Shown: positions 1-12,874, counted from the stretch's first letter. The stretch: DNA of 12,874 nt from Candidatus Bathyarchaeia archaeon (GCA_050015395.1 JBEKBM010000040.1:1-12874), one strand, 5' to 3'. The notes: generated by a model not told the origin, from the letters alone. A program made the numbers and translations.

Positions 1-1
1 T

Positions 2-142
2 AACCTTCGAAGCGTCAAGCGCAACACAGCCTGTGCTAACACAAACCGAGACGCTGGATTTACTCGGTTTTCTCTTGGACTTGATTTCTTCGCGAAGCTT
101 TTCGAGGTCTTTAGGTGATCGTATACATTTAATGGTTCCCAT
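2..142 (-). CDS. NuoF/HydB-like NADH-binding subunit, N-terminal part (runs off the window edge)
   Basis: Manual translation from ATG 142: MGTIKCIRSPKDLEKLREEIKSKRKPSKSSVSVCVSTGCVALDASKV. The 'I.SP.DLE.LR.EI...V.VC..TGC.A' pattern is typical of the N-terminal thioredoxin-like [2Fe-2S] domain of HydB/NuoF-type proteins. SD-like AGGTGA lies just upstream, and it directly follows the nuoE-like gene. Confidence 0.8.
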   Translation of the reverse strand, partial: MGTIKCIRSPKDLEKLREEIKSKRKPSKSSVSVCVSTGCVALDASKV

Positions 143-155
143 GTTTATTCACCTG

Positions 156-803
156 CTATGTGTATTTAGATAGAATTCTTTTTACGGCGAGCAGCTTTAA
201 GTTTCCATAGTATTCGCCGTCAATAGTCATCATTGGGCCGAGAGCGCAACCGCCTAAACAGTAAACTGTTTCAAGACTGAATCTGCCGTCTGTGGTGACT
301 TCACCCGTATCTATGCCGAGAATGCTCTGCAACTTCTCAAGGATTGTTGGCGCACCTCTCACTTTACAGGAAGTTCCCGTGCAAACCCTTATTAGATGTC
401 TCCCTCGAGGACTGAGAGAGAAGGCTTTGTAAAAAGTTGCGACTTGGTATACTTGATTGATAGGTATTCCCAGCTGTGTGCTTACTTCTAATAGCATTTC
501 CATCGGAAGCCAGCCGAAATTCTTTTGCAATCTCAAAAGGATTTGAATTAACATGCTTTTGTCGTATTGGTAGTCCTCTATTGTCTTATTCACTATTCCA
601 GCAATACCACGTAATTTTACAGGTTGCTCTTTTAATGAGAATTTGCTTTTCAACTCCATATCCAACCCTTTTCGACGTAACATTTGAGCTTTTTCTTCAG
701 GGATCCTAACCTTGTAACGGCATGTAGGGCAGGTGGCATAATGCTCGTTCTCGCCTTGGTAATCCCATTTATAGTCACAATGTTGACATATGAGCAATAC
801 CAT
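156..803 (-). CDS. nuoE: NuoE/HydC-like [2Fe-2S] subunit with N-terminal Zn-ribbon extension
   Basis: LIQILLRLQKNFGWLP...VYQVATFYKAFSLSPRGRHLIRVCTGTSCKVRG...FSLETVYCLGGCALGP shows the NuoE motifs with all four cluster Cys. Residues 1-35 add CQHC..W...CPTC. Confidence 0.9.
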   Translation of the reverse strand: MVLLICQHCDYKWDYQGENEHYATCPTCRYKVRIPEEKAQMLRRKGLDMELKSKFSLKEQPVKLRGIAGIVNKTIEDYQYDKSMLIQILLRLQKNFGWLPMEMLLEVSTQLGIPINQVYQVATFYKAFSLSPRGRHLIRVCTGTSCKVRGAPTILEKLQSILGIDTGEVTTDGRFSLETVYCLGGCALGPMMTIDGEYYGNLKLLAVKRILSKYT

Positions 804-810
804 TTTACTA

Positions 811-832
811 CCTACCTACCTAGGTAGGTAGG
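811..832. repeat. Perfect 22-bp palindrome CCTACCTACCTAGGTAGGTAGG
   Basis: Read directly; it is its own reverse complement, is built from CCTA/TAGG tetramers and lies 7 bp upstream of the nuoE-like ATG. Confidence 0.95.
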
Positions 833-835
833 CAT

Positions 836-860
836 CTATAAGTGCTATAAGAGCTTTGCG
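836..860 (-). promoter_or_regulatory. Putative archaeal BRE/TATA promoter for the nuoE/F-like operon
   Basis: The - strand reads CGCAAAGCT-CTTATAG-CA-CTTATAG: a purine-rich BRE-like stretch followed by a duplicated TATA-like heptamer (836-842 and 845-851). Confidence 0.5.
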
Positions 861-924
861 ATTTAGAGCGCTGCACGAGAAACGGCTGGGCACATTGACG
901 AACGGATTTTTATTTCGGACGCGA

Positions 925-1074
925 ACTTTGAAGTTTAAGTATTTGAGCAAGATGGCTGCTGATGAGCAACTGGACGAGTACGTTCTTAATGGGCAGTCAT
1001 TGCTTGACTTGCCATCCGATAACAAGGCGTATGTTTCAGTGAAAGCTATAATGAAAAGCTTGGGCTACTTGTAG
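925..1074 (+). pseudogene. 3' remnant of a CooC/AcsF-like Ni-insertion ATPase gene
   Basis: LKFKYLSKMAADEQLDEYVLNGQSLLDLPSDNKAYVSVKAIMKSLGYL* resembles the CooC/MinD-family C-terminus (xLGxIxxDxxLxEYxxxGxSLLDLPxDSxAYxxVxxI). No P-loop or CxC region is present upstream. It sits directly before cdhA. The 5' boundary is approximate. Confidence 0.65.
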
Positions 1075-1149
1075 GCACAAGTGTTTTTACACAATTTTTC
1101 GGAAACCTTCCATATTTATAGCTTCTCCCTGACTTTTGCCTTTAAATCT

Positions 1150-1204
1150 GGAAAGGTTTAAAAAGATTGTAATGGAGTTTATAGCTAAACCTTTACAGAG
1201 GTTT
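1150..1204 (+). promoter_or_regulatory. Putative cdh operon promoter (BRE-TATA) and RBS
   Basis: GGAAAGG-TTTAAAAA (TATA-like at 1157-1164); GAGGT SD-like at 1198-1202 ahead of TTG 1211. Confidence 0.55.
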
Positions 1205-1210
1205 CTTAAT

Positions 1211-3559
1211 TTGACGACTAAAAACGTTAATATAAAAATTGATGAAATGAAGACCAATACTGGTTTCATTAAAAATCTTGAGTTATCTATAGGCAAAGTT
1301 ACCACTGACAACTGGACTGAACCTATGGGTCCAACCCCCATGCCATCACTAACTGCCCTGAGAGACTGGGACATGAAACTCCTCACCAAGTACAAGCCCT
1401 TTTACATGCCTGATTGCGACCTCTGCTGTCTCTGCACTTATGGAAAATGTGATTTGACAGCTGGTAAACGTGGCGCTTGCGGCTTAGACATCGCTGCCCA
1501 ATCATCTCGTATAGTGCTTTTGGCTTGTAGTATTGGAGCGGCAACTCACACAGGTCACGCCCGTCATGTTGTTGATCACTTGATCGAGAAATATGGTCGA
1601 AAGCATCCTATTGATGTAGGTGGCTTAAACGTTAAGGTCGAAGCTCCAGTCACAAGACTTGTCACTGGAATAAAACCTGAAACTCTTGGCGATCTAGAGG
1701 AAGTTTTGGAATACTGCGAAATGCAGATTACTCATTTACTCTCAGTTGCGCATACAGGCCAGGAAGGAAACAATTTGGACTTTGAATCAAAGGCTTTTCA
1801 TGCTGGTAGAATTGACCAAGTAGGCATGGAAGTCGCGGATATAGCTCAAATCTCAACACTAAACTTCCCGAAAGCTGATCCTGAAGCACCACTCATCAAA
1901 ATGGGTATTGGATCTGTCGACACATCAAAACCAGTCATCATGTGCATCGGTCACAACGTCGTGCCCTCAGTTGGAATTATCGATTACATGAAAGAAAGCA
2001 AGCTTGATGACAAAATGGAAGTCGTGGGATTATGTTGTACTGCCTTCGACAATACAAGATATTACAACCGAGCAAAAATCGTCGGTCCAATCTCATGGCA
2101 ACTACGCTTTATACGTGGAGGATTCGCAGATGTAGTCGTCCTTGACGAGCAATGTGTCCGAACAGATGCTTTTGATGAAGCACGCAAAGTTCGCGCTCCG
2201 GTCATCGCCGCGTCAGAGAAGAACTGTATGGGCTTTAAGAACCGCACAAACGACCCGGCAGACGAAATCGTCGCTGACCTTGTAAGCGGCAAAGTACTTG
2301 GTGTACTCATTCTTGACCCTGAAAAAGTCGGCGAAGTAGCAGTCAAAGTTGCAAAGCAAATAGCGCCTATACGCAAGAAAATGAATAACCTGCCCACAAT
2401 CGACGAAATAAAATCTCTTGCCAAAACATGCAGACAATGCAACCTTTGCCAGAGAAGTTGCCCGCAAGACCTCCAAATCCCAGCAGCACTCAAAGCTGCA
2501 GCTGAAGGCAATCTTGCACCACTAACCGACCTATATGAAGAATGCATTGGATGTGGACGCTGCGAAGAAGCATGCCCCGTCAAACTGCAAATACACAGCT
2601 TCATAGTCAAAGCCGGCGAAAAATTCATGTTAGAAGAATCTAACTTGTGCCGTGCAGGCAGAGGCGCTGTCCAAGATGTGGAAATACGCAATGTCGGCAG
2701 CCCAATCGTACTCGGAGAAATCCCCGGCATACTTGCAGTTGTAGGGTGCGCTAATTACCCGCACGGCGGCAAAGATGTCTATGACATATGCAGAGAATTT
2801 GCCAGCCGACGCTTCATCGTTGTCACATCAGGATGCTCGGCCATGTCCGCGGGAAGCTACAAAAACGAAGAAGGCAAAACATTATACGAGGAATTCTCAG
2901 GCGGATTTGAGGCTGGAGGAGTACTTAACGTCGGTTCATGTGTTGCAAATGCGCATATTGCAGGCGCCGCCATCAAAGTCGCTAACATCTTTGCAAAGAG
3001 GAACTTGCGAGGTAACTACGAGGAAATAGCTGATTATATCCATAACCGTGTAGGCGCAGTCGGCTTAGCTTGGGGTGCATACTCGCAGAAAGCGGCGTCA
3101 ATTGCTTCTGGCTTCTGGAGTTTAGGCGTTCCAGTACTCGTCGGTCCACACGGCAGCAAATACCGGCGTATGCTCCTTGGTAGAGAGGACAAGCCTGAAG
3201 ATTGGGAAGTTTACGATGCACGCACAGGCAACAAAGTAAACGTCGGACCGTCTCCCGAACACTTGTTTCAAACAGTTGAAACACCACAAGAAGCAATGGT
3301 TTCAATCGCAAAACTATGCATTAGACCAAACGACACTTGGAAAGGTCGCAGCATAAAACTAAGCCACTACGTTGACCTACACAAACGACACTACGGATGC
3401 ATGCCGCTGGACTTACACTTGTTCGTGCGAACAATGGCTGATGTGCCAATGACAATGAAAGATGAATTTACCAAGATACTGGAAGCACACGATTGGAAGG
3501 AAACAGTAATTCCTGACCCGACATTGCTTCCAAGAATGATCCGTAAAATGAAGGAGTGA
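1211..3559 (+). CDS. cdhA: ACDS complex alpha subunit (archaeal Ni-CO dehydrogenase)
   Basis: GPTPMP, CDLCCLCTYGKCDL..GACG (D/B clusters), C-cluster ligand motifs GHN, CCT, DEQC, GCANY, SGCS and GSC, and two ferredoxin motifs CRQCNLCQRSCP and CIGCGRCEEACP. Start moved from ORF-track 1136 to TTG 1211 because of the SD and promoter positions. Confidence 0.97.
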   Translation: MTTKNVNIKIDEMKTNTGFIKNLELSIGKVTTDNWTEPMGPTPMPSLTALRDWDMKLLTKYKPFYMPDCDLCCLCTYGKCDLTAGKRGACGLDIAAQSSRIVLLACSIGAATHTGHARHVVDHLIEKYGRKHPIDVGGLNVKVEAPVTRLVTGIKPETLGDLEEVLEYCEMQITHLLSVAHTGQEGNNLDFESKAFHAGRIDQVGMEVADIAQISTLNFPKADPEAPLIKMGIGSVDTSKPVIMCIGHNVVPSVGIIDYMKESKLDDKMEVVGLCCTAFDNTRYYNRAKIVGPISWQLRFIRGGFADVVVLDEQCVRTDAFDEARKVRAPVIAASEKNCMGFKNRTNDPADEIVADLVSGKVLGVLILDPEKVGEVAVKVAKQIAPIRKKMNNLPTIDEIKSLAKTCRQCNLCQRSCPQDLQIPAALKAAAEGNLAPLTDLYEECIGCGRCEEACPVKLQIHSFIVKAGEKFMLEESNLCRAGRGAVQDVEIRNVGSPIVLGEIPGILAVVGCANYPHGGKDVYDICREFASRRFIVVTSGCSAMSAGSYKNEEGKTLYEEFSGGFEAGGVLNVGSCVANAHIAGAAIKVANIFAKRNLRGNYEEIADYIHNRVGAVGLAWGAYSQKAASIASGFWSLGVPVLVGPHGSKYRRMLLGREDKPEDWEVYDARTGNKVNVGPSPEHLFQTVETPQEAMVSIAKLCIRPNDTWKGRSIKLSHYVDLHKRHYGCMPLDLHLFVRTMADVPMTMKDEFTKILEAHDWKETVIPDPTLLPRMIRKMKE

Positions 3560-3565
3560 TAAGAC

Positions 3566-4108
3566 ATGTCATGTGAACCTTGGCAATGTGCAGAAATAGC
3601 CGCAACAAAGAAAGCAAACCCCATACAGAAACCTGAGATAGTAGTAGCAATGATAAAGAAAGCATCACGTCCCATCCTCATTGTAGGTAGCAATGCTACT
3701 GAACGCTGGATGGAAGGCAAACAACTAATCGAGTACCTGATTGACTTCGCTAAAGCATCAAAAGTCCCAGTTGTAGCCACAGCCCACATGGTCGGCGAAT
3801 TCATAAAACGCGGTTACCAACCAGCAGGCTTCATGTCCGCAATGGACATTGGTAACAGGCTTGTAGATCCAGAGTGGCAAGGAATCGACGGTAAAGGACA
3901 CCCTGATTTAGTATTACTCATCGGGCTGCCATATTATATGGAGGCATTAATCTTGTCAGGTCTCAAGCACTTTGCTCCAGACCTCAAGACTATGACTCTG
4001 GACAACATGTATCATGCACACGCAAGCTGGTCTTTCCCAAACGCAACCCTTGAGGAATGGGCTGCAAATCTCAAAGTCATAACTTCAAAATTTGAAGGAG
4101 GACAATAA
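3566..4108 (+). CDS. cdhB: ACDS complex epsilon subunit
   Basis: PWQ.A..., MIKKASRPILIVG, PVVATAH, DPEWQGIDGKGHPDL, LSGLKHFA, ASWSFPN; SD GGAGTGA; position directly after cdhA. Confidence 0.95.
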   Translation: MSCEPWQCAEIAATKKANPIQKPEIVVAMIKKASRPILIVGSNATERWMEGKQLIEYLIDFAKASKVPVVATAHMVGEFIKRGYQPAGFMSAMDIGNRLVDPEWQGIDGKGHPDLVLLIGLPYYMEALILSGLKHFAPDLKTMTLDNMYHAHASWSFPNATLEEWAANLKVITSKFEGGQ

Positions 4109-4112
4109 AAAA

Positions 4113-5528
4113 ATGTCAATGTTTAAAGATATACCTGTTGATGTTGGCGTAATCTACGAAGGCGAACGCATTAGAAGAAACGACATGCAAGTAGAACTTG
4201 GTGGACCAAATGTTAAAGAAAAGTTTGAACTAGCAAAAGTAAAACCAATGGACGAAATAGAAGACGGCAAAATCACCATAATAGGCCCAGACATAAAAGA
4301 CCTCAAAGAAGGCGGCGCATATCCACTCGGCATTCTCGTTGAAGCTGCAGGTGCAACTCTTGATCAAGGACTCGAAGGCGTCATCGAAAGACGCATTCAC
4401 GGCTACCTAAACTACATTGAAGGCTTCATGCACCTAAACCAACGCTATGACATCTGGATACGCCTGGGCAAAAAATCATTCCAAAAAGGCTTAAACAGTT
4501 TTGAACCAATCGGAAAAGTACTCTACCGCCTATTCAAAAGTGAACTCCCCATAATCGAGAAAGTGCAAATAACCTTCATAACAGATCCAGCTAAATTGTC
4601 AGAACTCTACTCGAATGCAATGCAAGATTACGAATCACGCGACGCCAAAGCAAGAGGCCTCAAAGACGAAGACGTCGACAAATTTTACGGTTGCACCCTG
4701 TGCCAATCGTTTGCTCCAACCCATGTTTGCATCATCACCCCGCAAAGATATTCTAACTGCGGAGCCATCAGCTGGTTTGACGGAAAAGCCTCAGCAAACA
4801 TTGATCCTAAAGGACCAGTATTCGCAATAGACAGAGGCCAATTATTGAATGCTGAAAAGGGCGAGTTTAGCGGCGTTAACGAAATGGCTAAAAAACACAC
4901 TATGGGCGAAGTGAACCAAGTCTGGCTATACACAGCGTTCGATCACCCACACACTTCATGCGGATGCTTCGAGGCAGTAGCATTCTACATTCCAGAAGTA
5001 GACGGCTTTGGCGTAGTAAACAGAAGCTTCAAAGGCGTAACAGTAAACGGTTTACCATTCTCAACAATCGCTGACTCCACCGCTGGCGGACGACAAATAG
5101 ACGGCTTCCACGGAATGTCAATTGAATACATGCGTAGCAAGAAGTTCCTATCTGCAGACGGTGGATGGAACCGCATAGTTTGGCTTCCAAAAGAAGTTAA
5201 AGAACGAGTAAAAGACTTCATACCCCAAGACATCGTTGACAAAATTGCCACTGAAGAAAACGCAACAAGCGTCGACGTATTGAAAGCATTCCTAAAGGAC
5301 AAAAATCACCCAGTAGTCGCAAGATGGACAGCCGAAGAAGCACCAGCAGCAGAAGCAGAAGCCTTAGAGGTTAAAGAAGAAGCAGCAGGTACAATGATGC
5401 CGGTTGCCACAGCAGCGTCGTTGCCAATAATGGCTGGCGGATTCAAAATCATTCTCAAAGACGCAAAAATCTACGCTAAAACAGTCATAATCCAAGTTGT
5501 AAAGAGCGAAAAAACTGAGAAGCGGTGA
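4113..5528 (+). CDS. cdhC: ACDS complex beta subunit (acetyl-CoA synthase)
   Basis: YEGERIR, HLNQRYDIWIR, A-cluster motifs FYGCTLCQSFAP, CGAISW and HTSCGCFE, and an Ala/Glu-rich C-terminal linker. Start set at ATG 4113 after SD GGAGGA (ATG 4119 also possible). Confidence 0.97.
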   Translation: MSMFKDIPVDVGVIYEGERIRRNDMQVELGGPNVKEKFELAKVKPMDEIEDGKITIIGPDIKDLKEGGAYPLGILVEAAGATLDQGLEGVIERRIHGYLNYIEGFMHLNQRYDIWIRLGKKSFQKGLNSFEPIGKVLYRLFKSELPIIEKVQITFITDPAKLSELYSNAMQDYESRDAKARGLKDEDVDKFYGCTLCQSFAPTHVCIITPQRYSNCGAISWFDGKASANIDPKGPVFAIDRGQLLNAEKGEFSGVNEMAKKHTMGEVNQVWLYTAFDHPHTSCGCFEAVAFYIPEVDGFGVVNRSFKGVTVNGLPFSTIADSTAGGRQIDGFHGMSIEYMRSKKFLSADGGWNRIVWLPKEVKERVKDFIPQDIVDKIATEENATSVDVLKAFLKDKNHPVVARWTAEEAPAAEAEALEVKEEAAGTMMPVATAASLPIMAGGFKIILKDAKIYAKTVIIQVVKSEKTEKR

Positions 5529-6754
5529 CCCAATTGCCTCAAGACAGCGCCAAGAAAAAAGACGATGAAGGATTAAAACTCAGCAGTGACCTATTGGAAG
5601 CGCTTGCAAAATTCCAGCAGATCGAGCTGCAAGATTTCGAAATGGACGTCAAGGAACTGGAAATAATCTTTGAGCCGGGAATGGCTGGGCAAATGATGCC
5701 CAAGATAAAGCTTCCAGGCTTAGCAGGCGGGAAACCCACTGCCATGTTGCAGGCAGCTTTTGTACCTCCAGTTGAAACCTATGCAAACAAGATCACTGAA
5801 GTAAGACTTGGGGCAACCAGAAGCGAAGGCGGAACACGCGGAAAATCACTCATAGTAGGCGGCGAGACTTCGCCTGCATTCTACAATTTTGAGCGACCAA
5901 CCACTCACAAACCAGTAATCACTCTTGACGTTTTCGACATGGAAGTTCCACTAAGCAAAGCAGTCAAAATGCACGTCAAAGACGTTGTCGGTGACCCAGC
6001 GGCATGGGCAAAACTTGCAGTGGACAAGTTCGGTGCAGATATGGTTACAATTCACCTAATCAGCATTGATCCGCTACTCAAAGATGCTACACCAAAAGAC
6101 GCGGTGAAAACAGTTGAAAAAGTTCTGCAAGCCGTTGACGTTCCGCTAGTTATCGGCGGTTGCGGTGACCCAGTTAAAGACGCAGACGTTTTCGAGGCAA
6201 TCTGCGAGGCTTTCCCAGGCGAACGTTTCCTCATTAGCTCAATAACAAGGGATATGGATGTTGAGCGCTGTGCAAAGTACGTTAAAAAGAACGGGCATGC
6301 CGCGCTATCCTTCACTCCTATGGACTTGAATTTGGCACGGGAACTTAACAGGCGACTATACGACTTCTTGGGAAGAGAAGACATTGTCATGGACTTAACC
6401 ACTGCCGCGTTAGGCTACGGCTTAGATTACGCATTCACTAACATGGAGCGTGCAAGGCTCGGTGGATTAATGGGTGACGTTGAATTAGCTCACCCAATGT
6501 CTTCAGGAACAACTAATGCTTGGGCGGCACGTGAGGCTTGGCTCAAAATGTCTGCTGAATGGGAACCACGCGAGCTCCGAGGTCCACTTTGGGAAGTAAC
6601 AACAGCCTTAACACTTTTGCTTGCTGGTGTTGACTTATTCATGATGATGCACCCCGCTGCCGTAAAAACACTAAAAGACGTTACAAACTATCTAACAAGC
6701 GGCAAGAAAGCAGATGCTTCCAAATTTGCTGATTGGGTCAGCGTAAAGGCTTAA
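5525..6754 (+). CDS. cdhD: ACDS complex delta subunit (corrinoid Fe-S protein small subunit)
   Basis: LGATRSEGGTRG, VLQAVDVPLVIGGCGDP, MDLTTAALGYGLDY, TTNAWAAREAW, RGPLWE, DLFMMMHP; GTG start overlaps the cdhC TGA stop. Confidence 0.96.
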   Translation: MTQLPQDSAKKKDDEGLKLSSDLLEALAKFQQIELQDFEMDVKELEIIFEPGMAGQMMPKIKLPGLAGGKPTAMLQAAFVPPVETYANKITEVRLGATRSEGGTRGKSLIVGGETSPAFYNFERPTTHKPVITLDVFDMEVPLSKAVKMHVKDVVGDPAAWAKLAVDKFGADMVTIHLISIDPLLKDATPKDAVKTVEKVLQAVDVPLVIGGCGDPVKDADVFEAICEAFPGERFLISSITRDMDVERCAKYVKKNGHAALSFTPMDLNLARELNRRLYDFLGREDIVMDLTTAALGYGLDYAFTNMERARLGGLMGDVELAHPMSSGTTNAWAAREAWLKMSAEWEPRELRGPLWEVTTALTLLLAGVDLFMMMHPAAVKTLKDVTNYLTSGKKADASKFADWVSVKA

Positions 6755-6769
6755 GGGAGTTTGAATGGG

Positions 6770-8194
6770 ATGAGCGAAAAAAAGAAAGCTGGATTAAAAG
6801 AATTAAGCCCCATAGACGTTTACAAGCTTCTTCCAAAAATTAACTGTAAAGAATGCGGTCAAGACAACTGCATGGCTTTTGCCACAAAAATTGTCAACCG
6901 CGAAGTAAACATTGACCAGTGCCCACCGCTGTTAAAGAAAGAAAACGAGAAAGCCTACAACCAACTGAAAGAACTTCTGAAGCCAGCAGTCAAAGAAGTC
7001 ACCGTGGGCGTAGGAGACAAAGCTATGAAACTAGGCGGCAAACTAGTCATGTACCGTCATGAATTCACCTATAATAACCCGACAGCCATCGCAATCGACG
7101 TAACCGACGAAATGACCGCGCAGGAAGTTGAAAGCCGAATAAAACGCATAGAAAACTATAGCTTCGAATACATCGGCTACACGCTAAAGCTGGACATGAT
7201 TGCTGTCCGCTCAACATCAGGCGACGCTGAAAAATTTAAAGCCACCGTGAAAAAAGTCGTTGAAACAACCAAACTACCCATGATTCTGTGCGCATTAAAC
7301 TCGAATGTTCTTGAAGCAGGATTAATTGCGGCGCCAAAAGCACGACCACTACTTTATGCGGCTAACAAAGAAAACTGGAAAGACATGGCGGAACTCGCCT
7401 TAATGTACAGTTGCCCACTGGTGGTTTCTGCACCAAACGACCTAAACACGCTGGTTTCGCTCGCTAAAACATTGATGGCTTATGGTGTAACTGACTTGGT
7501 TTTAGACCCAGGTACATTCGCGAATGAAGGATTACCAGATACTATTAACAACTTTACGATGCTACGCAGAGCAGCAGCTAAAGGCGGAGAAGAGCTTGCT
7601 GGCTTCCCATTGATGGGTGTTCCAATGGTTGCTTGGCTGGGCAAGGGCGAAACAGCTGAAGACCTCCTAAAATGGCGTGAAGCATACTTAGCCGCAATGC
7701 TCATTGTACGGTACGCTGACGTACTTATAATGCACGGCGCTGACGGATGGTCACTGCTGCCGATTACGGTGCTAAGACAAAACATTTACACTGACCCACG
7801 CAAACCAGTCGCGGTTGCTCCAGGACTCAAAGTGTTCGGGACTCCAGACGAAAACTCTCCAGTGTTCTTTACATCCAACTTTGCCTTAACATACTACACA
7901 GTCGCTTCAGACATAGAAAACAGCAAACTAAACGCGTATCTCATTGTTGTTGACACTGAGGGCTTAGCAATCGACAGCGGAGTCGCAGGACGAAAACTAA
8001 CCGCTGAAGGCGTAGCCGACGCCATAAAAGCTTCAGGCGTAGAAAGCAAAGTTAAACACAGAACAATAATTATCCCTGGCAAAGCATCACGCATAAGCGG
8101 CGAAATCGAAGAACTCAGCGGCTGGAAAGTTCAAGTTGGACCACGCGACAGCAGCGAGATACCCAAGTATCTCATTGAGAAATGGCAACCCTAA
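6770..8194 (+). CDS. cdhE: ACDS complex gamma subunit (corrinoid Fe-S protein large subunit)
   Basis: LPKINCKECGQDNCMAFA...CPPL ([4Fe-4S]), RQNIYTDPRKP, NFALTYYTV, VGPRDSS. ATG 6770 is preferred to TTG 6761 by spacing from GGGAG. Confidence 0.97.
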   Translation: MSEKKKAGLKELSPIDVYKLLPKINCKECGQDNCMAFATKIVNREVNIDQCPPLLKKENEKAYNQLKELLKPAVKEVTVGVGDKAMKLGGKLVMYRHEFTYNNPTAIAIDVTDEMTAQEVESRIKRIENYSFEYIGYTLKLDMIAVRSTSGDAEKFKATVKKVVETTKLPMILCALNSNVLEAGLIAAPKARPLLYAANKENWKDMAELALMYSCPLVVSAPNDLNTLVSLAKTLMAYGVTDLVLDPGTFANEGLPDTINNFTMLRRAAAKGGEELAGFPLMGVPMVAWLGKGETAEDLLKWREAYLAAMLIVRYADVLIMHGADGWSLLPITVLRQNIYTDPRKPVAVAPGLKVFGTPDENSPVFFTSNFALTYYTVASDIENSKLNAYLIVVDTEGLAIDSGVAGRKLTAEGVADAIKASGVESKVKHRTIIIPGKASRISGEIEELSGWKVQVGPRDSSEIPKYLIEKWQP

Positions 8195-8196
8195 CA

Positions 8197-8230
8197 ACTC
8201 TTTCTTTTCTTTTATCTTTTAATCTTTTTA
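8197..8230 (+). terminator. T-rich archaeal-type terminator after cdhE
   Basis: CTCTTTCTTTTCTTTATCTTTTAATCTTTTT immediately follows the TAA. Confidence 0.65.
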
Positions 8231-8258
8231 AAGCCCTTTAATGTCTAATAGCTTGCTC

Positions 8259-8314
8259 GGATAATGTTAATTCTTTTGCCATAACCTCATAAAGCGGTTT
8301 TGCACTTTTTACTA
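8259..8314 (+). repeat. Imperfect direct repeat, copy 1 (56 bp)
   Basis: Ungapped manual alignment to 8762-8817 gives 46/56 identical; a third partial copy lies at 8326-8349. Confidence 0.9.
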
Positions 8315-8345
8315 TGACCATTATAGAATACTGTTAAGAGTTTGG

Positions 8346-8663
8346 TTATCCCTTACATTCTCGGTAGTTGCCGCTAAGTTCATTTTCCGACAAATCTGAT
8401 TTAATCGCCTTTCGTAAGTTCTGAGAAGGGTATGGACAAATGATATGACCAAGACCGCTTGTAATGAAAGGTTCATGTTTTAACGCGCTTTTTATTGGTG
8501 CACATAATAGGTAATTCTCACAAATGCCTGTTTCCTCGCCTGTTTTTTGTGAGAAGGAACCACAGGTATGTACGGTCATGACTTTTAGACAACTATCGAC
8601 ATTGTTATGCTTCTGGCAAAGGATGCTACTTTCTGTTTTTTCACCGCAAATAAGACATTTCAT
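8346..8663 (-). CDS. Small Cys-rich hypothetical protein, possible Zn finger
   Basis: 105 aa, ATG start, N-terminal CLIC-x9-CQKH, 9 Cys in total, purine-rich AGGTGG/AAGG upstream. No family recognised. Confidence 0.6.
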   Translation of the reverse strand: MKCLICGEKTESSILCQKHNNVDSCLKVMTVHTCGSFSQKTGEETGICENYLLCAPIKSALKHEPFITSGLGHIICPYPSQNLRKAIKSDLSENELSGNYRECKG

Positions 8664-8735
8664 AAACCTTCAACCTTACCACCTATTATAATTTGGTTAA
8701 AAATTTAAGACTTGCCCTTGGCATAAATTTGCTTG

Positions 8736-8763
8736 CCAAACGGTTTTAAGTTTCACCGTTTGG
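8736..8763. repeat. 9-bp perfect inverted repeat CCAAACGGT-N10-ACCGTTTGG
   Basis: Read directly; the right arm overlaps the start of direct-repeat copy 2. Confidence 0.85.
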
Positions 8764-8817
8764 ATACTGTTAAGTCTTTTGTCATGACCCCGAAAAGCGG
8801 TTTTTAGCTTTTTACTA
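8762..8817 (+). repeat. Imperfect direct repeat, copy 2 (56 bp)
   Basis: GGATACTGTTAAGTCTTTTGTCATGACCCCGAAAAGCGGTTTTTAGCTTTTTACTA compared with copy 1 at 8259-8314. Confidence 0.9.
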
Positions 8818-8847
8818 CCTTAGCCTTTTGCTAGAACTATTACTTCG

Positions 8848-8897
8848 TTTAAAATTTTATATTGTAAACCCCGTATACTAATTAACCCATTGGAGGG
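8848..8897 (+). promoter_or_regulatory. Putative TATA box and RBS for the ParB-like operon
   Basis: AAAA-TTTTATAT (TATA-like at 8855-8862); GGAGG at 8892-8896, 9 nt before TTG 8906. Confidence 0.5.
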
Positions 8898-8905
8898 CAG
8901 AACGA

Positions 8906-9730
8906 TTGGTACGTTACGACAATACTAAGCAATTGATTCCAAAGTCTATACCCATTGATAAAATAGTCTTAAGCAAAAACAATGTAAGAAAAACCTTAGA
9001 TGATTTCTTAGCAATAGATGAGCTTGCTAAGAGCATTAAAGAAAATGGGCTTTTACAACCAGTAGTTGTTTTCCATGATGAAGGGCAGGAAACATATGAA
9101 CTAATTATTGGACAGCGGAGATATCAAGCTTGCAAGAGCATAGGCTTGAAAACAATTCCTGCAATCATTAGAAAGCCTATGAATAGTATAGATGCTATTG
9201 CATTATCGTTTATAGAGAATATACATAGAAAAGAATTGGGTTATAAAGACAAAACAGAAGTGGCTTTAGCTTTACTCAATGAACTTGGAACAATTCAATC
9301 AGTAGCCGACAAACTCAATGTATCGGATACTGCTGTTAGAAACTACCTAGGCTACAACGCGGTTCCTGACCCAATTAAAAAGATGGTTGAAGAGGGAAAA
9401 CTTTCAAGAATTGTAGCGGTCAGGATAGCTAAAAATAACCCAGTTACCGAAAAGGCAGTTGCAATTGCTGAAAAAATAAAAGAAATACCGCAAAGAAAAT
9501 TACGAAAACAAATTCTCCAAACAAATACAGCATACCCAGACTACAGCGTAGAACAGGTTGTCAAAGAAGCACCAGATATCAAGTTTAAACGAGTCACCAT
9601 AGATTTAACAAGCGCTGCTGCTGAAGCTTTGAAAATGGCAAGCGTAAAATACGAAATGGAACCTGAAGAAATCGCATTAAACGCGCTCCTAGATTACTTA
9701 ACAAATGAAGGATTTTACGGAAAGAAGTGA
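8906..9730 (+). CDS. ParB/RepB/Spo0J-family protein (ParB/Srx domain + HTH + C-terminal RHH-like segment)
   Basis: IPIDKI....NVR, ELAKSIKENGLLQPVVV, YELIIGQRRYQAC (GxRRxxA arginine patch), IPAII, ENIHRKEL, HTH TIQSVADKLNVSDTAVRNYL, C-terminal RVTIDL-helix-helix. Confidence 0.9.
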   Translation: MVRYDNTKQLIPKSIPIDKIVLSKNNVRKTLDDFLAIDELAKSIKENGLLQPVVVFHDEGQETYELIIGQRRYQACKSIGLKTIPAIIRKPMNSIDAIALSFIENIHRKELGYKDKTEVALALLNELGTIQSVADKLNVSDTAVRNYLGYNAVPDPIKKMVEEGKLSRIVAVRIAKNNPVTEKAVAIAEKIKEIPQRKLRKQILQTNTAYPDYSVEQVVKEAPDIKFKRVTIDLTSAAAEALKMASVKYEMEPEEIALNALLDYLTNEGFYGKK

Positions 9731-10296
9731 GCACAAAAATGGATGAAGAAAGTGCTCTAGCCGTTATTTATTCTAATACTAAAAGACATAAACGGTCACT
9801 AGATTTACTCACCATTGCGGAAAATTTTGCCTATCTGAAAAAGCTTTATGGAACTCAAGAAGCGGTTGCCCAAAAAACGGACCTTTCGAGAGAGATGGTT
9901 CGAGAATTTCTTCAAATACTGACCTTACCTGATTTTGTACAACAATTGATAAAGACTAGAAGAATTGACAGCATAGACGTAGCTTATAGACTGTCAAAAA
10001 TTAGAGACATTAATACTCTTGAAAACTCAACATCCCAACTTCTAAACTTACCAGCACACGACATTCGAGATATTATACAAGCAACAAGGGAAAACATTGG
10101 ATTATCAGTCGATAGCGCTAGGGAGATTATTCTAAAAACTAAACCGACTAACCTTCACTTATTCATTCTTGATTTTAGCGAAATGGATTACAAGAAATTG
10201 AATATTGTTGCTAAAAATAATCAGTGCTCCCCTGCTGAAATAATTAAAAAAATAACCGAAGACTGGCTAAAGAGCACAAAAGGAGAGAAGAAGTAA
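9727..10296 (+). CDS. ParB-like HTH protein lacking the N-terminal ParB/Srx domain
   Basis: YGTQEAVAQKTDLSREMVREFLQILTLPDFVQQLI is a Spo0J-type HTH region; C-terminal LFILDF-helix-helix is RHH-like. The GTG overlaps the upstream TGA (ATG 9739 is an alternative start). Confidence 0.75.
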   Translation: MSTKMDEESALAVIYSNTKRHKRSLDLLTIAENFAYLKKLYGTQEAVAQKTDLSREMVREFLQILTLPDFVQQLIKTRRIDSIDVAYRLSKIRDINTLENSTSQLLNLPAHDIRDIIQATRENIGLSVDSAREIILKTKPTNLHLFILDFSEMDYKKLNIVAKNNQCSPAEIIKKITEDWLKSTKGEKK

Positions 10297-10298
10297 AC

Positions 10299-11240
10299 GT
10301 GAGTGCATGCCAAACTATTCGGAAAAACATTAAGGATGTTGACAGCTTTATTGCTAGTTTTCGCCATGAAGAGCAAAGTGCTAGGGTTGAACTTCTCTTT
10401 TCTAAAGCGTTAAGTTACATGTTTCATTTGCCATTTTATACATTTCCAACCAATAATCCCTACGTACAACACAAGGTTGTTTGGTATGGCGAGAAAGAAA
10501 TGTGTCCCATAGGCGCTCCAGCTAATTATCCTGATGCCATTGTTTACGCTAGGCATTTTGATGTTTTAATGGAAGTAACACGTAATACTGGAACAAGGCA
10601 ATGGGACAGAGAGTATGCTCGTACAGTAAGGCATTTCCAAGATTACATAAAAAAGTGGAAGAAAGAAAGAGATTCGGTTTTCTTATTGTTAATTGTTAAT
10701 GACATAAACAGGGATACTTTTACTTCGGTACAAGCAAAGAACAGGGAAGGCTATAACATACTGCCGATAACTTTTCAGAATTTTGAAAGGATACTTGAGG
10801 TTTGTGACCTTGCTGTTGGATTAAGGCATTTTGATTTGAGGATTTTATTTAGCAGACTAATAAGAAATCTAATTGATTCCCAAAGTTTGACAGCTTACAA
10901 CAAGTGTGCAAAAAGGTCTGTTTTAGATTGGAGAGTTACTCTTTTAGACCGTTATCGGCTTGCATATGTCGCCGTTAAAGGCTACCAAGTATTTGTAACG
11001 GAGAACAGGCAACACTTAGGCGCTTCAGAGATTGCCACTGAAATCTATACAGAAAGAGACGTTAAAAACTATTTCAAAATATTAGGTAAAACGCCTCAAA
11101 AAGAGGATGTTATAGACGGCATGTTAACATTTGGTTTTGCAAGTGACGCAGGATTGCCACAAACGGATATGATTCTTTCTCTTGTAAGCCCTCTTGAAAT
11201 ACGAGAAAGAATTAAGGAAATCATGGAAACGATTGATTAG
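10299..11240 (+). CDS. AlwI/Nt.BstNBI-like PD-(D/E)xK endonuclease-domain protein
   Basis: GAPANYPD(79)AIVYARHFDVLME(92)VTRNTGTRQWDRE(105)YARTVRH(112) fits the AP..PD..EVT...G..Q...E...V.RH signature of RE_AlwI-family catalytic domains. It starts 2 nt after the upstream stop. Confidence 0.7.
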   Translation: MSACQTIRKNIKDVDSFIASFRHEEQSARVELLFSKALSYMFHLPFYTFPTNNPYVQHKVVWYGEKEMCPIGAPANYPDAIVYARHFDVLMEVTRNTGTRQWDREYARTVRHFQDYIKKWKKERDSVFLLLIVNDINRDTFTSVQAKNREGYNILPITFQNFERILEVCDLAVGLRHFDLRILFSRLIRNLIDSQSLTAYNKCAKRSVLDWRVTLLDRYRLAYVAVKGYQVFVTENRQHLGASEIATEIYTERDVKNYFKILGKTPQKEDVIDGMLTFGFASDAGLPQTDMILSLVSPLEIRERIKEIMETID

Positions 11241-11252
11241 AAGATAGAATAA

Positions 11253-12029
11253 TTAAATTAAACATTCGCTACTGCACAAACGTTTGACATGAACTTCTGG
11301 GATAGGCTCGTTTGCTTCAAGCTTCTCTTGTAAACCCCTTAAGGTAAACTTCATTAAGCGTTGTTTTGGAAAATGCTTAGAGTTCTCTTCTAACAGCATT
11401 GCTTTTATAAAAAGGTCTTTATGCTGTTCAAATAGCTCTGTCCACCTAGATAGAGAATTGAAAGGGCAGAAAAAGCAACCGCTTCTAACAGGCATTGAGA
11501 AGTCATAATCGCTTGCTAAAATTATGTCAACGCAATCTTGGCGTGAAAACTTTTTGTCTATTAAGGGAAAAGTATTAGTAACATATTCGACGCCACTTTC
11601 ACGCTTTCTGTCTCTTTCTTCATAGGCTATACCTAAATATTGGTTGACATGGGCTTCTAAAGAACGATAATGAGAATAGATTGGCGTAATTTTAAAGTCT
11701 CTTGTAGACCAACGCCAAAGTTGTGAAGGTATCACCTTTCTGCTCATACACTTATCGTATAAGGTTTTCCCACTTTTCGACCTAACGATTGTTAGAAGTA
11801 TCCCATATCTCGACAGGTAAGTATCAACGTTTTTTAGATGTGTGTAAGTTTCGGGTATCTCGCCACCTGTGTCTGCAAAAACGACTTCATCTAGCGGAAA
11901 ACCATTATCAACTAAATAAATGAGCAAAGCGGTTGAATTTAAACCAGCACCAAAGCTGAGTACATACTTTTCATCGGTTGTTGTATTGCTGTTATTGTGT
12001 TTAGGTTCCAAGCAAGAGTTCTCCTGCAA
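11253..12029 (-). CDS. PAPS-reductase-family (PP-loop adenine nucleotide alpha hydrolase) protein
   Basis: VLSFGAGLNSTAL, VVFADTGGEIPETY, RWSTRDFKITPI, YLGIAYEERDR, FPLID...SRQDC, PVRSGCFFCPF, C-terminal CSSEC. The true start may be TTG 12011, which has better spacing from AGGAG. Confidence 0.85.
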   Translation of the reverse strand: MQENSCLEPKHNNSNTTTDEKYVLSFGAGLNSTALLIYLVDNGFPLDEVVFADTGGEIPETYTHLKNVDTYLSRYGILLTIVRSKSGKTLYDKCMSRKVIPSQLWRWSTRDFKITPIYSHYRSLEAHVNQYLGIAYEERDRKRESGVEYVTNTFPLIDKKFSRQDCVDIILASDYDFSMPVRSGCFFCPFNSLSRWTELFEQHKDLFIKAMLLEENSKHFPKQRLMKFTLRGLQEKLEANEPIPEVHVKRLCSSECLI

Positions 12030-12086
12030 TTCTCCTGCATAAACCCTTTATTGTTCGTTCCCAATAAAAGTTTTGCGATTGCATTT

Positions 12087-12554
12087 TTACACTACAAGGA
12101 AAAGGTTGATGCCACTTGGGTAATAGAAGAAAATTATTTGCGATATTATAAAAAGGGATAGTAGCACTATAAAGGCGATTGGAAGACAATATACAAGCTT
12201 GCGCATTTCAATCCCTTTCAGCTCCTTAGGATAAAATTCTGGAGTTTGAGTATCCTTCGAGAGGTTGTTGGCCTGATTCTTGTAATATTCGATGTATTGA
12301 CTGCTTCTTTGCTGAATTAGAAGCCACACAATGCTCAGAAAGACTCCTGCGCTTGATATCATAATTTTATAAAAAGTTAGTTGGGTTAAGTTGCTTACGG
12401 GGTTTTGACTATACGCTAAAGTCAAGAGGCTTAGTACAACCAAAAAGTAACTGTTGCGACTCCAATTGAGTGTTGCTTCGCTTTCCTGTCTACTCTTTAT
12501 TAACTCTAAAGATTTCATGTTAGTTGAGTTTGCGCTGTCTTGCTGGTTTGACAT
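12087..12554 (-). CDS. 3-TM membrane protein of unknown function
   Basis: Hydrophobic segments YFLVVLSLLTLAY, IMISSAGVFLSIVWLLI and LVYCLPIAFIVLLSLFIISQIIFFYY. ATG 12554 is preferred to ORF-track TTG 12614. Confidence 0.75.
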   Translation of the reverse strand: MSNQQDSANSTNMKSLELIKSRQESEATLNWSRNSYFLVVLSLLTLAYSQNPVSNLTQLTFYKIMISSAGVFLSIVWLLIQQRSSQYIEYYKNQANNLSKDTQTPEFYPKELKGIEMRKLVYCLPIAFIVLLSLFIISQIIFFYYPSGINLFLVV

Positions 12555-12700
12555 GCTAAAACATATCAACTTCTTTTGCTTATTTGATTTTCGATAGATA
12601 TGAGGCGCTTCCAAGTTTTATAATGACTTGCCAAAGAAAACAGGCGAGAGTTTGTACATAGAAAAAGCACTATTTCATGTTGAAAGTGCGGGCATTAATT

Positions 12701-12720
12701 CTATGTTGAACTATGTTGAA
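12701..12720 (+). repeat. Perfect 10-bp tandem duplication CTATGTTGAA x2
   Basis: Read directly. Confidence 0.9.
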
Positions 12721-12734
12721 TCATATTTGGAGTC

Positions 12735-12874
12735 GAGGGGTGTGCACAATTTTAAATCTAGAGAGCGCCTTCTTGTCATCATGGAAGCCTGTGAACTCGT
12801 CAGGCTAATCGTCAACAAAACAGTCATTCCAGCAGAACCCAAAAGACGCGGAAACCCAGGCTACGGACAACTCA
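12735..12874 (+). mobile_element. Probable left end of an insertion sequence with DDE transposase N-terminus (CDS from ATG 12781, runs off the window)
   Basis: GAGGGGTGTGCACAA resembles IS5/IS1182-type terminal inverted repeats. TTTTAAAT lies ~25 bp before the ATG. The peptide MEACELVRLIVNKTVIPAEPKRRGNPGYGQL has the 'KRRG.PGY' style of transposase N-termini. No catalytic domain or right end is visible. Confidence 0.5.

Follow-up and report, generated by a model that had tools for sequence, protein, structure and literature searches.

A mobile five-gene cassette of Bathyarchaeota that joins a ParB pair, an AlwI-type nuclease, and a PAPS-reductase-fold enzyme: a candidate modification-linked conflict system

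A 12,874-nucleotide (nt) contig of a peat archaeon, Candidatus Bathyarchaeia archaeon (GCA_050015395.1, JBEKBM010000040.1; parent genome, 2.59 Mb), carries a mobile cassette of five genes, encoding a canonical ParB, a truncated ParB paralog (ParB2), a stand-alone nuclease of the AlwI type, an enzyme of the phosphoadenosine phosphosulfate (PAPS) reductase fold, and a small membrane protein of the Pfam family 8xMP. The window, as the term is used here, is this entire contig. A first-pass annotation had put forward the first three genes as a complete new defense system; inverted repeats and a target duplication around a related cassette delimit all five genes instead, and the trio is therefore not the whole unit. 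The conserved core consists of the Cys-rich PP-loop enzyme of the PAPS reductase fold, the canonical ParB, and a paralog that retains only the helix-turn-helix (HTH) part, with a third-slot effector attached and 8xMP often present. We tentatively favor, at somewhat below an even chance, the reading that this is a modification-linked conflict cassette of Bathyarchaeota in which the effector can be exchanged and the ParB pair matches it.

Five genes within mobile-element boundaries

The limits of the unit are marked in a related locus of genome G823 (L007), where 33-nt inverted repeats (6485-6517 and 10588-10620; 91% complementary) bracket exactly the genes from ParB to 8xMP, 4,136 bp end to end, and a 9-bp target duplication, CCAATTTAC, stands at both junctions. 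The corresponding empty site, in which the L007 flanks meet directly around one copy of the target, is present in 11/11 related loci examined, the window's own genome included. The five genes occur in identical order in G016 (L005) and G823 (L007/L056), each time with different housekeeping neighbors. The window retains the left repeat (Table 1); a right-end motif was not found there at up to 8 mismatches.

The same end motif occurs six times in the window's own genome (G000), compared with zero occurrences of a reversed control. Two inverted pairs of it, each with 8- to 9-bp duplications, enclose other cargo: in one case a DNA methylase, a weak PD-(D/E)xK candidate, and an unknown protein, and in the other a winged-HTH/UPF0175-like set. 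These elements form a family of transposase-less cargo elements of 2.5 to 4.1 kb with inward GATACTGTTAAGT(T/C)(A/T)TTTG... inverted repeats and 8- to 9-bp target duplications. No autonomous transposase matching the GATACTGTTAAG... ends was identified.

Within the window, the first-pass description of three same-strand, translationally coupled genes in an AT-rich island is borne out. ParB starts with TTG and the other two genes with GTG; ParB and ParB2 overlap by 4 nt (GTGA), ParB2 and the nuclease gene are 2 nt apart, and GC content is 0.35 to 0.38 over positions 8501-12500, compared with 0.40 to 0.50 over 1-8500. Public gene callers place the ParB2 start at an ATG at 9739 (P0281, 185 amino acids [aa]), which would leave an 8-nt gap to ParB. 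Spacing of the trio is also tight in the two relatives, one having a 10-nt gap and then a 4-nt overlap and the other overlaps of 14 nt and 4 nt. The PAPS-fold and 8xMP genes are transcribed toward the trio. The cassette was invariant, on a single 4.6-kb unitig, in 4/4 peat and wetland runs examined; 24 runs are listed for it, none of them an RNA run, and DNA contigs were used.

The absence of parA and of a DNA methyltransferase, also part of the earlier description, stands as far as it was scanned: neither family was matched among seven open reading frames (ORFs) in 8346-12873, a scan that left out the ORFs at 156-803, 3566-4108, 5525-6754, and 6761-8194, and the L005 cassette genes likewise matched no methyltransferase family. 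In its wider sense, that no modification enzyme is at hand, the claim gave way to the PAPS-family gene found beside ParB2 (see below).

Two upstream ORFs encode subunits of acetyl-CoA decarbonylase/synthase (cdh). The purF-upstream sequence follows within 6 nt of the end of cdh in G019 and G003, and nothing in those loci matches 8195-8905. Because cdh runs straight into purF-upstream sequence in these genomes, the ~5.6 kb between cdh and purF in the window genome is an insertion, absent from these two of the eight loci examined (L073-L080). Four of the other six (G004, G016, G020, and G023) hold a different 0.7 to 1.35 kb between cdh and purF, and in the remaining two the purF-upstream sequence was not found. 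The cdh-purF gap is an insertion hot spot, with the window insert running from 8195 to past 12874 and onward in L008 to ~6248; partial duplicates of the cdh 3' end were seen in G004, G021, and G023. The insertion sequence (IS) beside the cassette (L008:5038-6045) matches DDE_Tnp_1 at 1e-14 (DDE_Tnp_1/DUF772 type). Contig depth over 12540-12874 is ~10 times that of the cassette, and many loose ends fall at 12659-12683 in 4/4 runs; the contig ends at 12874 because a multi-copy IS sits there. At the left side of the cassette, 56-nt direct repeats (8259-8314 and 8762-8817; 82% identical, 503 nt apart) bracket the ORF at 8346-8663(-) and may be the remnant of a second element end.

Table 1. Positions of the cassette genes, element ends, and proteasome-like genes. 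Plain coordinates refer to the window; others carry their genome or locus label.
Feature	Position	Strand	Remarks
Low-GC insert start, directly after cdh operon	8195-8345		Includes the cassette left end as a degenerate 56-nt copy (8259-8314, 82%)
Cys-rich ORF, 105 aa, no family match	8346-8663	-	Within insert, outside cassette inverted repeat; bracketed by the 56-nt direct repeats
Left terminal inverted repeat, inward-reading, GATACTGTTAAGTCTTTTGTCATGAC	8763-8788	+	Motif also upstream of ParB in L005 and L007
Canonical ParB, 274 aa	8906-9730	+	ParB_N, HTH; C-terminal region maybe ribbon-helix-helix
ParB2, 189 aa	9727-10296	+	HTH_ParB only; lacks N-terminal CTPase-type domain
Stand-alone AlwI/Nt.BspD6I-type catalytic-domain nuclease, 313 aa	10299-11240	+	PF09491 and PDB matches
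PAPS-reductase-fold PP-loop enzyme, 258 aa, SspD/DndC/BrxP-like	11253-12029	-	PADLOC, PHROG, and Pfam matches
Small membrane protein, Pfam 8xMP	12087-12614	-	PF24838, 5.6e-11; likely true start ATG at 12554
Start of multi-copy IS (DDE transposase)	12660-12874	+	Interrupts cassette right side
Own-genome end pair	G000:C21:9324-9349/13080-13105	+/-	L046 3326/7105
Own-genome end pair	G000:C1:26658 and partner	+	L047 4660/7200
Single end beside PIN gene	G000:C13:30002	-	L048 4527
Proteasome-like gene	L019:11124-11771
Proteasome-like gene	L022:7151-7858
Proteasome-like gene	L038:5876-6544
Proteasome-like gene	L055:9899-10573
Proteasome-like gene	L057:2985-3659

Linkage of the core and exchange of the third gene

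Fourteen distinct loci were read, most of them found with a PAPS or ParB2 query and nine of them from one genus. ParB2 accompanies the PAPS-family gene in 11/14. A ParB2 profile search, in which PAPS was not a query, gave nine loci in 8/120 genus genomes (112 lacked ParB2), and a PAPS-family gene lies beside ParB2 in all nine. Seven of these, in six genomes, were matched by the PAPS profile; one is a contig-end fragment (G796) and one carries a distant homolog (G786; hhalign 93.5%). The nuclease is present in 4/14 loci, one of which is the decayed G796 locus, and the nuclease, ParB2, and PAPS genes are adjacent in 3/3 intact nuclease loci. The order of the trio is kept in these three loci and in the decayed one, as conserved synteny of the proposed system would have it.

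On a wider scale, the close nuclease family makes up 11 clusters among 5.8 billion proteins; the ParB2 family has 31 clusters and the PAPS clade 522. For these metagenomic clusters (P0002-P0011 and the 522 PAPS clusters), linkage was judged from coinciding lengths of contigs alone, by which 6/11 nuclease clusters match ParB2 clusters and four match PAPS clusters. The close nuclease family was found in 1/36 other genus genomes, 0/24 genomes of other families in the order, and 0/400 other genomes of the phylum.

In 5/14 loci (G268, two near-identical viral contigs counted once, G026, G823:C21, and G771), a different gene follows ParB2. It encodes a proteasome-like Thr-peptidase of ~220 aa with invariant Thr2, D18, and K37, and it always stands after ParB2 in PAPS>ParB>ParB2 operons, which hold no nuclease and in which the PAPS gene has the same direction and lies directly upstream of ParB. 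The protein has no PADLOC match and may be a peptidase effector. It was also considered as a relative of the nuclease and proved unrelated on comparison with the nuclease profile. One genome, G823, holds both nuclease-type and peptidase-type loci.

The genes of the cassette diverge at different rates. Between the window and its relatives, the trio is 55 to 65% identical, compared with 84% for the neighboring genes (for 8xMP, 84% to the G016 homolog in an alignment that begins at residue 21). Between nuclease-type and peptidase-type loci within the genus, the PAPS-fold enzyme is 70 to 76% identical, ParB 30 to 37%, and ParB2 27 to 32%; ParB and ParB2 from peptidase-type loci of the genus are more similar to their counterparts in the distant G268 (45 to 48%). 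Because ParB and ParB2 vary with the third gene and the PAPS gene does not, ParB, ParB2, and the third gene appear to be a co-evolving module that docks onto a conserved PAPS gene. We therefore predict an exchangeable effector to which the ParB pair is fitted, beside a more conserved PAPS gene, a pattern whose weight is limited by the relatedness of the loci and by how they were found. The earlier claim that the ParB pair is tied to the nuclease holds insofar as the trio genes diverge together and ParB/ParB2 co-vary with the third gene; it does not extend to the five loci in which a proteasome-like gene replaces the nuclease.

This pattern could also be read in favor of a stand-alone trio, in which the ParB pair would sense or load on foreign DNA and license the nuclease, with the PAPS-fold enzyme and 8xMP forming an independent neighbor module. 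The trio does evolve as one block, at a rate unlike that of the PAPS and 8xMP genes; ParB and ParB2 follow the effector type and not the PAPS gene; and the trio is transcribed as a unit of its own, convergent with that of the PAPS and 8xMP genes. There is also a precedent in Menshen for ParB-superfamily sensors with polymorphic nuclease effectors (PMC12065111). We nevertheless consider a stand-alone trio quite unlikely. The PAPS-family gene adjoined ParB2 in every locus of a search that did not use it as a query, the transposon boundaries take in all five genes, and the PAPS gene of peptidase-type loci lies just upstream of ParB on the same strand.

Several loci show other arrangements. In L037 (G739:C2, 215-9911), PAPS and ParB2 genes directly adjoin BrxB, a PglX-like methylase, and a 1140-aa AAA protein; in L039 (G511:C8, 6215-12208), 8xMP with PAPS and a second 8xMP copy adjoin a BrxC/D-type ATPase. 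In L058 (G777:C63, 5207-10499), the genes for a distant SspD-like PAPS enzyme, a HerA/mad8-like ATPase, and two DNA methyltransferases belong to one operon, which looks like a separate DNA-modification module. A third arrangement, in L086 (G786:C80, 3301-8788), comprises a distant PAPS-fold gene, a 234-aa ORF, ParB, a 245-aa ParB2-like protein, a 357-aa protein with a ParB-like part, and a 246-aa ORF. Weak PAPS matches (E ~1e-21) were seen in five other genomes of the phylum; of the five short loci scanned, four show a PAPS-like gene without an adjoining ParB-like ORF, and from the fifth (L016) no PAPS ORF was recovered.

Protein families and a proposed mechanism

Domain matches agree with the first-pass assignment of a ParB, a truncated paralog, and a stand-alone AlwI-type nuclease. 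ParB matches ParB_N (Pfam) at E=4.2e-22 and TIGR00180 at E=1.6e-30, and carries the motifs GQRRYQA (GQRR, residues 69-72) and ENIHR. It aligns with the Noc/ParB/Spo0J structures 7ol9, 7bnk, and 6sdk with the GxRRxxA and ENxxR motifs in register, and in this alignment to solved CTP-binding clamps its CTPase-type motifs are intact. ParB2 has HTH_ParB as its sole domain match (E=3e-6) and aligns to ParB residues 128-265, the HTH and C-terminal half, which makes it a paralog; its profile matches the Spo0J DNA-binding domain at 4.5e-5 and, below threshold, the ribbon-helix-helix (RHH) proteins ParG (0.097) and CopG (0.5). Prediction of a complex between ParB2 (29 aligned rows) and the nuclease (10 aligned rows) scored 0.00 and counts neither way.

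Good scores against partition and Noc models would fit an ordinary chromosome or plasmid partition parB lying next to an unrelated orphan restriction fragment. We consider this reading very improbable. The ORF scan detected no ParA, and the window cassette has no parS-like palindrome; 112/120 genus genomes have no ParB2; a 4.1-kb transposon-like insertion holds the locus; and the nuclease belongs to a family of conserved, full-length proteins and not of fragments (mostly 310 to 330 aa among 74 representatives at E<=1e-30). In the two relatives, a 16-bp perfect palindrome, CTCCTGCATGCAGGAG, stands at the PAPS gene 5' end (L005:10935-10950 and L007:9717-9732); it is absent from the window copy.

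More in keeping with the mobile setting is a role in maintaining or regulating the element itself, with ParB and ParB2 as KorB/KorA-like or RHH-type regulators, the nuclease or peptidase as a toxin-like addiction factor that stabilizes a transposon or virus, and no part in defense. The cassette is indeed cargo of an element with terminal inverted repeats and target duplications whose relatives hold toxin-antitoxin-like and restriction-modification cargo, one version lies on two predicted viral contigs, KorB appears weakly among the structural relatives of ParB (9.4e-6), and the sub-threshold RHH matches fall in the ParB2 C-terminus. This role is nonetheless doubtful in our view, with only a small chance of being correct, as ParB has the full clamp-type CTPase motifs and not the reduced regulator form, an operator-like palindrome was not found in the window cassette, and the strictly co-occurring PAPS-fold enzyme would be left without a role.

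The nuclease matches RE_AlwI (PF09491) at E=1.9e-11 over model positions 335-441 of 441 only; the AlwI N-terminal sequence-recognition domains (model positions ~1-330) have no match in it, in agreement with the earlier view of a nuclease without a recognition domain. Against the PDB, it matches Nt.BspD6I (1e-10) and the small subunit of that enzyme (3.2e-4), in alignments confined to chain residues 445-603, and Foldseek on a modest model likewise returned only Nt.BspD6I (E=4e-8) and the small subunit (1e-4). The catalytic D...E-V-T...E residues are in register with Nt.BspD6I. Across 53 diverse relatives (21 to 47% identity), D79 and Q101 never vary, and conservation reaches 90% or more at E92, T94, E105, and H112; the two catalytic positions singled out by the first-pass annotation, D79 and E92, are among these six. 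Because of this conservation, the family looks catalytically active. Residues 1-65 and ~215-313 lie outside the assigned catalytic domain. No AlwI-type large subunit was found in the window, and the nuclease protein query matched its own genome once, at itself.

A profile search recovered a wider family of ~315-aa nucleases (225 representatives at E<=1e-3, including the 74 cited above), which an Atlas lead suggests is partly bacterial. No nuclease relatives were found in viral contigs by profile search or in plasmids or phages by tblastn. A fusion of ParB and HTH to longer (~450-aa) relatives, of the "Rosetta stone" kind, was considered and dropped, no ParB domain being found in any of 10 proteins scanned; in three of the 10 (two of nine ~450-aa proteins and the 428-aa P0239), the extension aligns to further parts of the AlwI model.

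The PAPS-fold enzyme matches SspD (PADLOC, 2.6e-29; profile positions 1-204 of 277), BrxP in part (PADLOC, 6.4e-11; positions 134-248 of 779), the phage family phrog_424 (1.1e-35), and its Pfam family (2.4e-7). It has six invariant cysteines (C94, C166, C185, C188, C252, and C256), and an AlphaFold2 model (predicted local distance difference test [pLDDT], 80) resembles CysH and the [4Fe-4S] thiolases TtuA, NcsA, and LarE, confirming the PP-loop fold. By analogy with these relatives, it is a candidate DNA-modifying enzyme. In viral contigs, a single-protein PAPS query found no match and an alignment query did. For 8xMP, PDB and literature searches gave nothing usable on function; a PDB match, "PptA" (21fy_C, E=0.0011), was dropped as a lead when the literature did not identify PptA.

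If the PAPS-fold enzyme does modify DNA, the nuclease might serve modification alone. The AlwI-type nickase would then open the backbone for the enzyme, as with SspB and SspD, and ParB and ParB2 would choose the site or regulate, as DndB does; with no restriction arm, the system would protect the carrier DNA or act epigenetically. The nearest solved relatives of the nuclease are a nickase, Nt.BspD6I, and its partner subunit; SspD is the best match of the enzyme in the defense library; homologs occur in 20 phage or archaeal-virus records; and the distant SspD-like gene of G777 keeps company with two DNA methylases and a HerA-like ATPase. DUF4007 is the nickase domain of SspB. A BREX type 4 BrxP fused to DUF4007 is described in a 2026 NAR survey, so nickase and PAPS reductase would recur as a pair. 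We still judge a role in modification alone unlikely. The core does not require a nickase, since PAPS, ParB, and ParB2 occur without the nuclease in five loci; the nuclease diverges with ParB/ParB2 and not with the PAPS-fold enzyme; and SspA, SspB, and SspC homologs were not detected by PADLOC.

We favor instead a conflict cassette in which the two activities would be opposed. By analogy with DndC and SspD, the PP-loop enzyme would place a sulfur-type mark on resident DNA, and the nuclease would nick or cut unmarked DNA. Lacking a recognition domain, the nuclease presumably needs a DNA-binding partner, and the ParB/ParB2 pair could supply the missing DNA binding and loading, as the R.BspD6I large subunit does for its small catalytic subunit. 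The outcome would be protection of the host, together with a cassette that is addictive to it. A conflict setting is consistent with the DNA methylase and toxin-antitoxin-like cargo in the same inverted-repeat family and with the Brx/Pgl neighbors in G739 and G511.

Several observations weigh against this proposal. The flanks of the window cassette are housekeeping genes (cdh and purF), not a defense island. The locus counts are not independent, because PAPS and ParB2 were used as queries and 9/14 loci share a genus. The AlphaFold2 model of the nuclease has a mean pLDDT of 62, with residues 48-86 and much of 221-313 below 50 and the C-terminal third unmodeled. Palindromes resembling parS (arms of at least 7 nt) number zero in the window cassette, compared with 1.5 expected from shuffles. 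In the G796 cassette (L085; G796:C13, 301-2666), the nuclease and ParB genes are each in three ORF pieces beside an intact ParB2, through decay or assembly error (metagenome-assembled genome, 75% complete). Since peptidase-type loci have no nuclease, restriction cannot be the universal partner of the core if the core modifies DNA. Finally, the cassette proteins matched no cysteine desulfurase, DndD/SspC ATPase, DndE, SspB (DUF4007), or PglZ in PADLOC or Pfam; with neither a desulfurase nor a DndD/SspC-type ATPase in the cassette, chemistry of the Dnd/Ssp kind would need to be minimal or host-assisted.

In its most specific form, which we regard as possible though on the unlikely side, the proposal would make this an undescribed immune or addiction family of archaea and archaeal viruses. 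A CTP-gated ParB clamp and an HTH-only paralog would act as the sensor, nuclease and Thr-peptidase as interchangeable effectors, and the PP-loop enzyme as the writer of a sulfur-type or other DNA mark, all carried on a new transposase-less cargo element (26- to 33-nt inverted repeats, 9-bp duplications) that shuttles restriction-modification and toxin-antitoxin cassettes among Bathyarchaeota. The CTP-dependent ParB clamp is so far known from chromosome segregation, nucleoid occlusion, and plasmid gene silencing; if the proposal is true, it would be linked to effector delivery as well. An AlwI-type catalytic domain would have been given new targets in nature by a DNA-binding module separate from it, a case relevant to programmable nickases, and a minimal archaeal relative would be added to the PAPS-reductase-based DNA-marking systems (Dnd, Ssp, and BREX type 4). 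The inverted-repeat cargo elements, with clean empty and occupied sites, would be a simple and traceable vehicle for the exchange of defense genes in an uncultured archaeal lineage.

Comparison with known systems

On the features tested, the cassette falls outside Dnd, Ssp, BREX type 4, Menshen, and classical AlwI restriction-modification. PADLOC (2023) named no system for the trio, as the first-pass annotation had anticipated, nor for the peptidase variant, and searches of full-text papers, supplementary files aside, turned up no description of this composition.

With R.BspD6I and AlwI, the cassette shares a homologous catalytic domain, and like the small subunit its nuclease has no recognition domain. 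It differs in the absence here of a large subunit and a cognate methyltransferase and in the extra N- and C-terminal regions, and its candidate partner is the ParB pair. ParB itself aligns in its N-domain motifs and HTH with the solved clamps of ParB/Spo0J, Noc, and KorB-KorA, and a ParB with a small second DNA-binding protein recalls the KorB-KorA pairing. Those clamps are set apart by what the cassette combines: no ParA among the ORFs scanned, no parS-like palindrome in cis, a transposon setting with enzyme partners, and no evident role with SMC or in membrane targeting.

A similar pairing of a PAPS reductase with ParB is that of E. coli IbrAB, for which a literature search returned only unrelated papers. 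The nearest published item, judging from section 11 of the preprint, is a listing of "PANGU-like" clusters 8 and 9, bacterial operons of PAPS reductase, Arc, and ParBc next to YejK-like nucleoid proteins (bioRxiv 10.64898/2026.04.06.716658). There too, a PAPS reductase shares its operon with a ParB-domain protein and a small protein of the RHH type, and the context is defense-linked. Those operons differ in being bacterial and centered on nucleoid proteins, and that section is a bioinformatic listing with no mention of a nuclease or peptidase. In Menshen, NsnABC combines a ParB-DUF262 sensor, an ABC ATPase, and an inPIN effector; Menshen, GmrSD, and SspE resemble the cassette in pairing a ParB-fold NTPase and a DNA-binding domain with polymorphic effectors (PMC12065111). 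They belong to the DUF262 branch, with an ABC ATPase in Menshen and no PAPS-fold enzyme within the unit, whereas ParB here is of the PF02195 type and no PADLOC Menshen model was matched.

By analogy, the cassette would come closest in its working to the DNA-marking systems built on a PAPS reductase. ParB, ParB2, the nuclease, and 8xMP gave no match to any Dnd model at E<=0.1; no BREX genes were found in the window, the BrxP match of the PAPS-fold enzyme being partial; and of the Ssp components, the SspD-type enzyme was matched, with SspA desulfurase, SspB nickase, and SspC ATPase unmatched in the other cassette proteins. Its ParB is a canonical PF02195 CTPase type and not of the DndB or DUF262 kind, and the AlwI-type nuclease, HTH-only ParB paralog, 8xMP, and a third gene that is peptidase-like in some loci further separate it from Dnd, Ssp, and BREX. 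What it has in common with Dnd, Ssp, and BREX type 4 is a PAPS-reductase-fold PP-loop enzyme beside a ParB-superfamily protein, together with a predicted DNA-nicking or -cutting activity, in a mobile and defense-linked setting.

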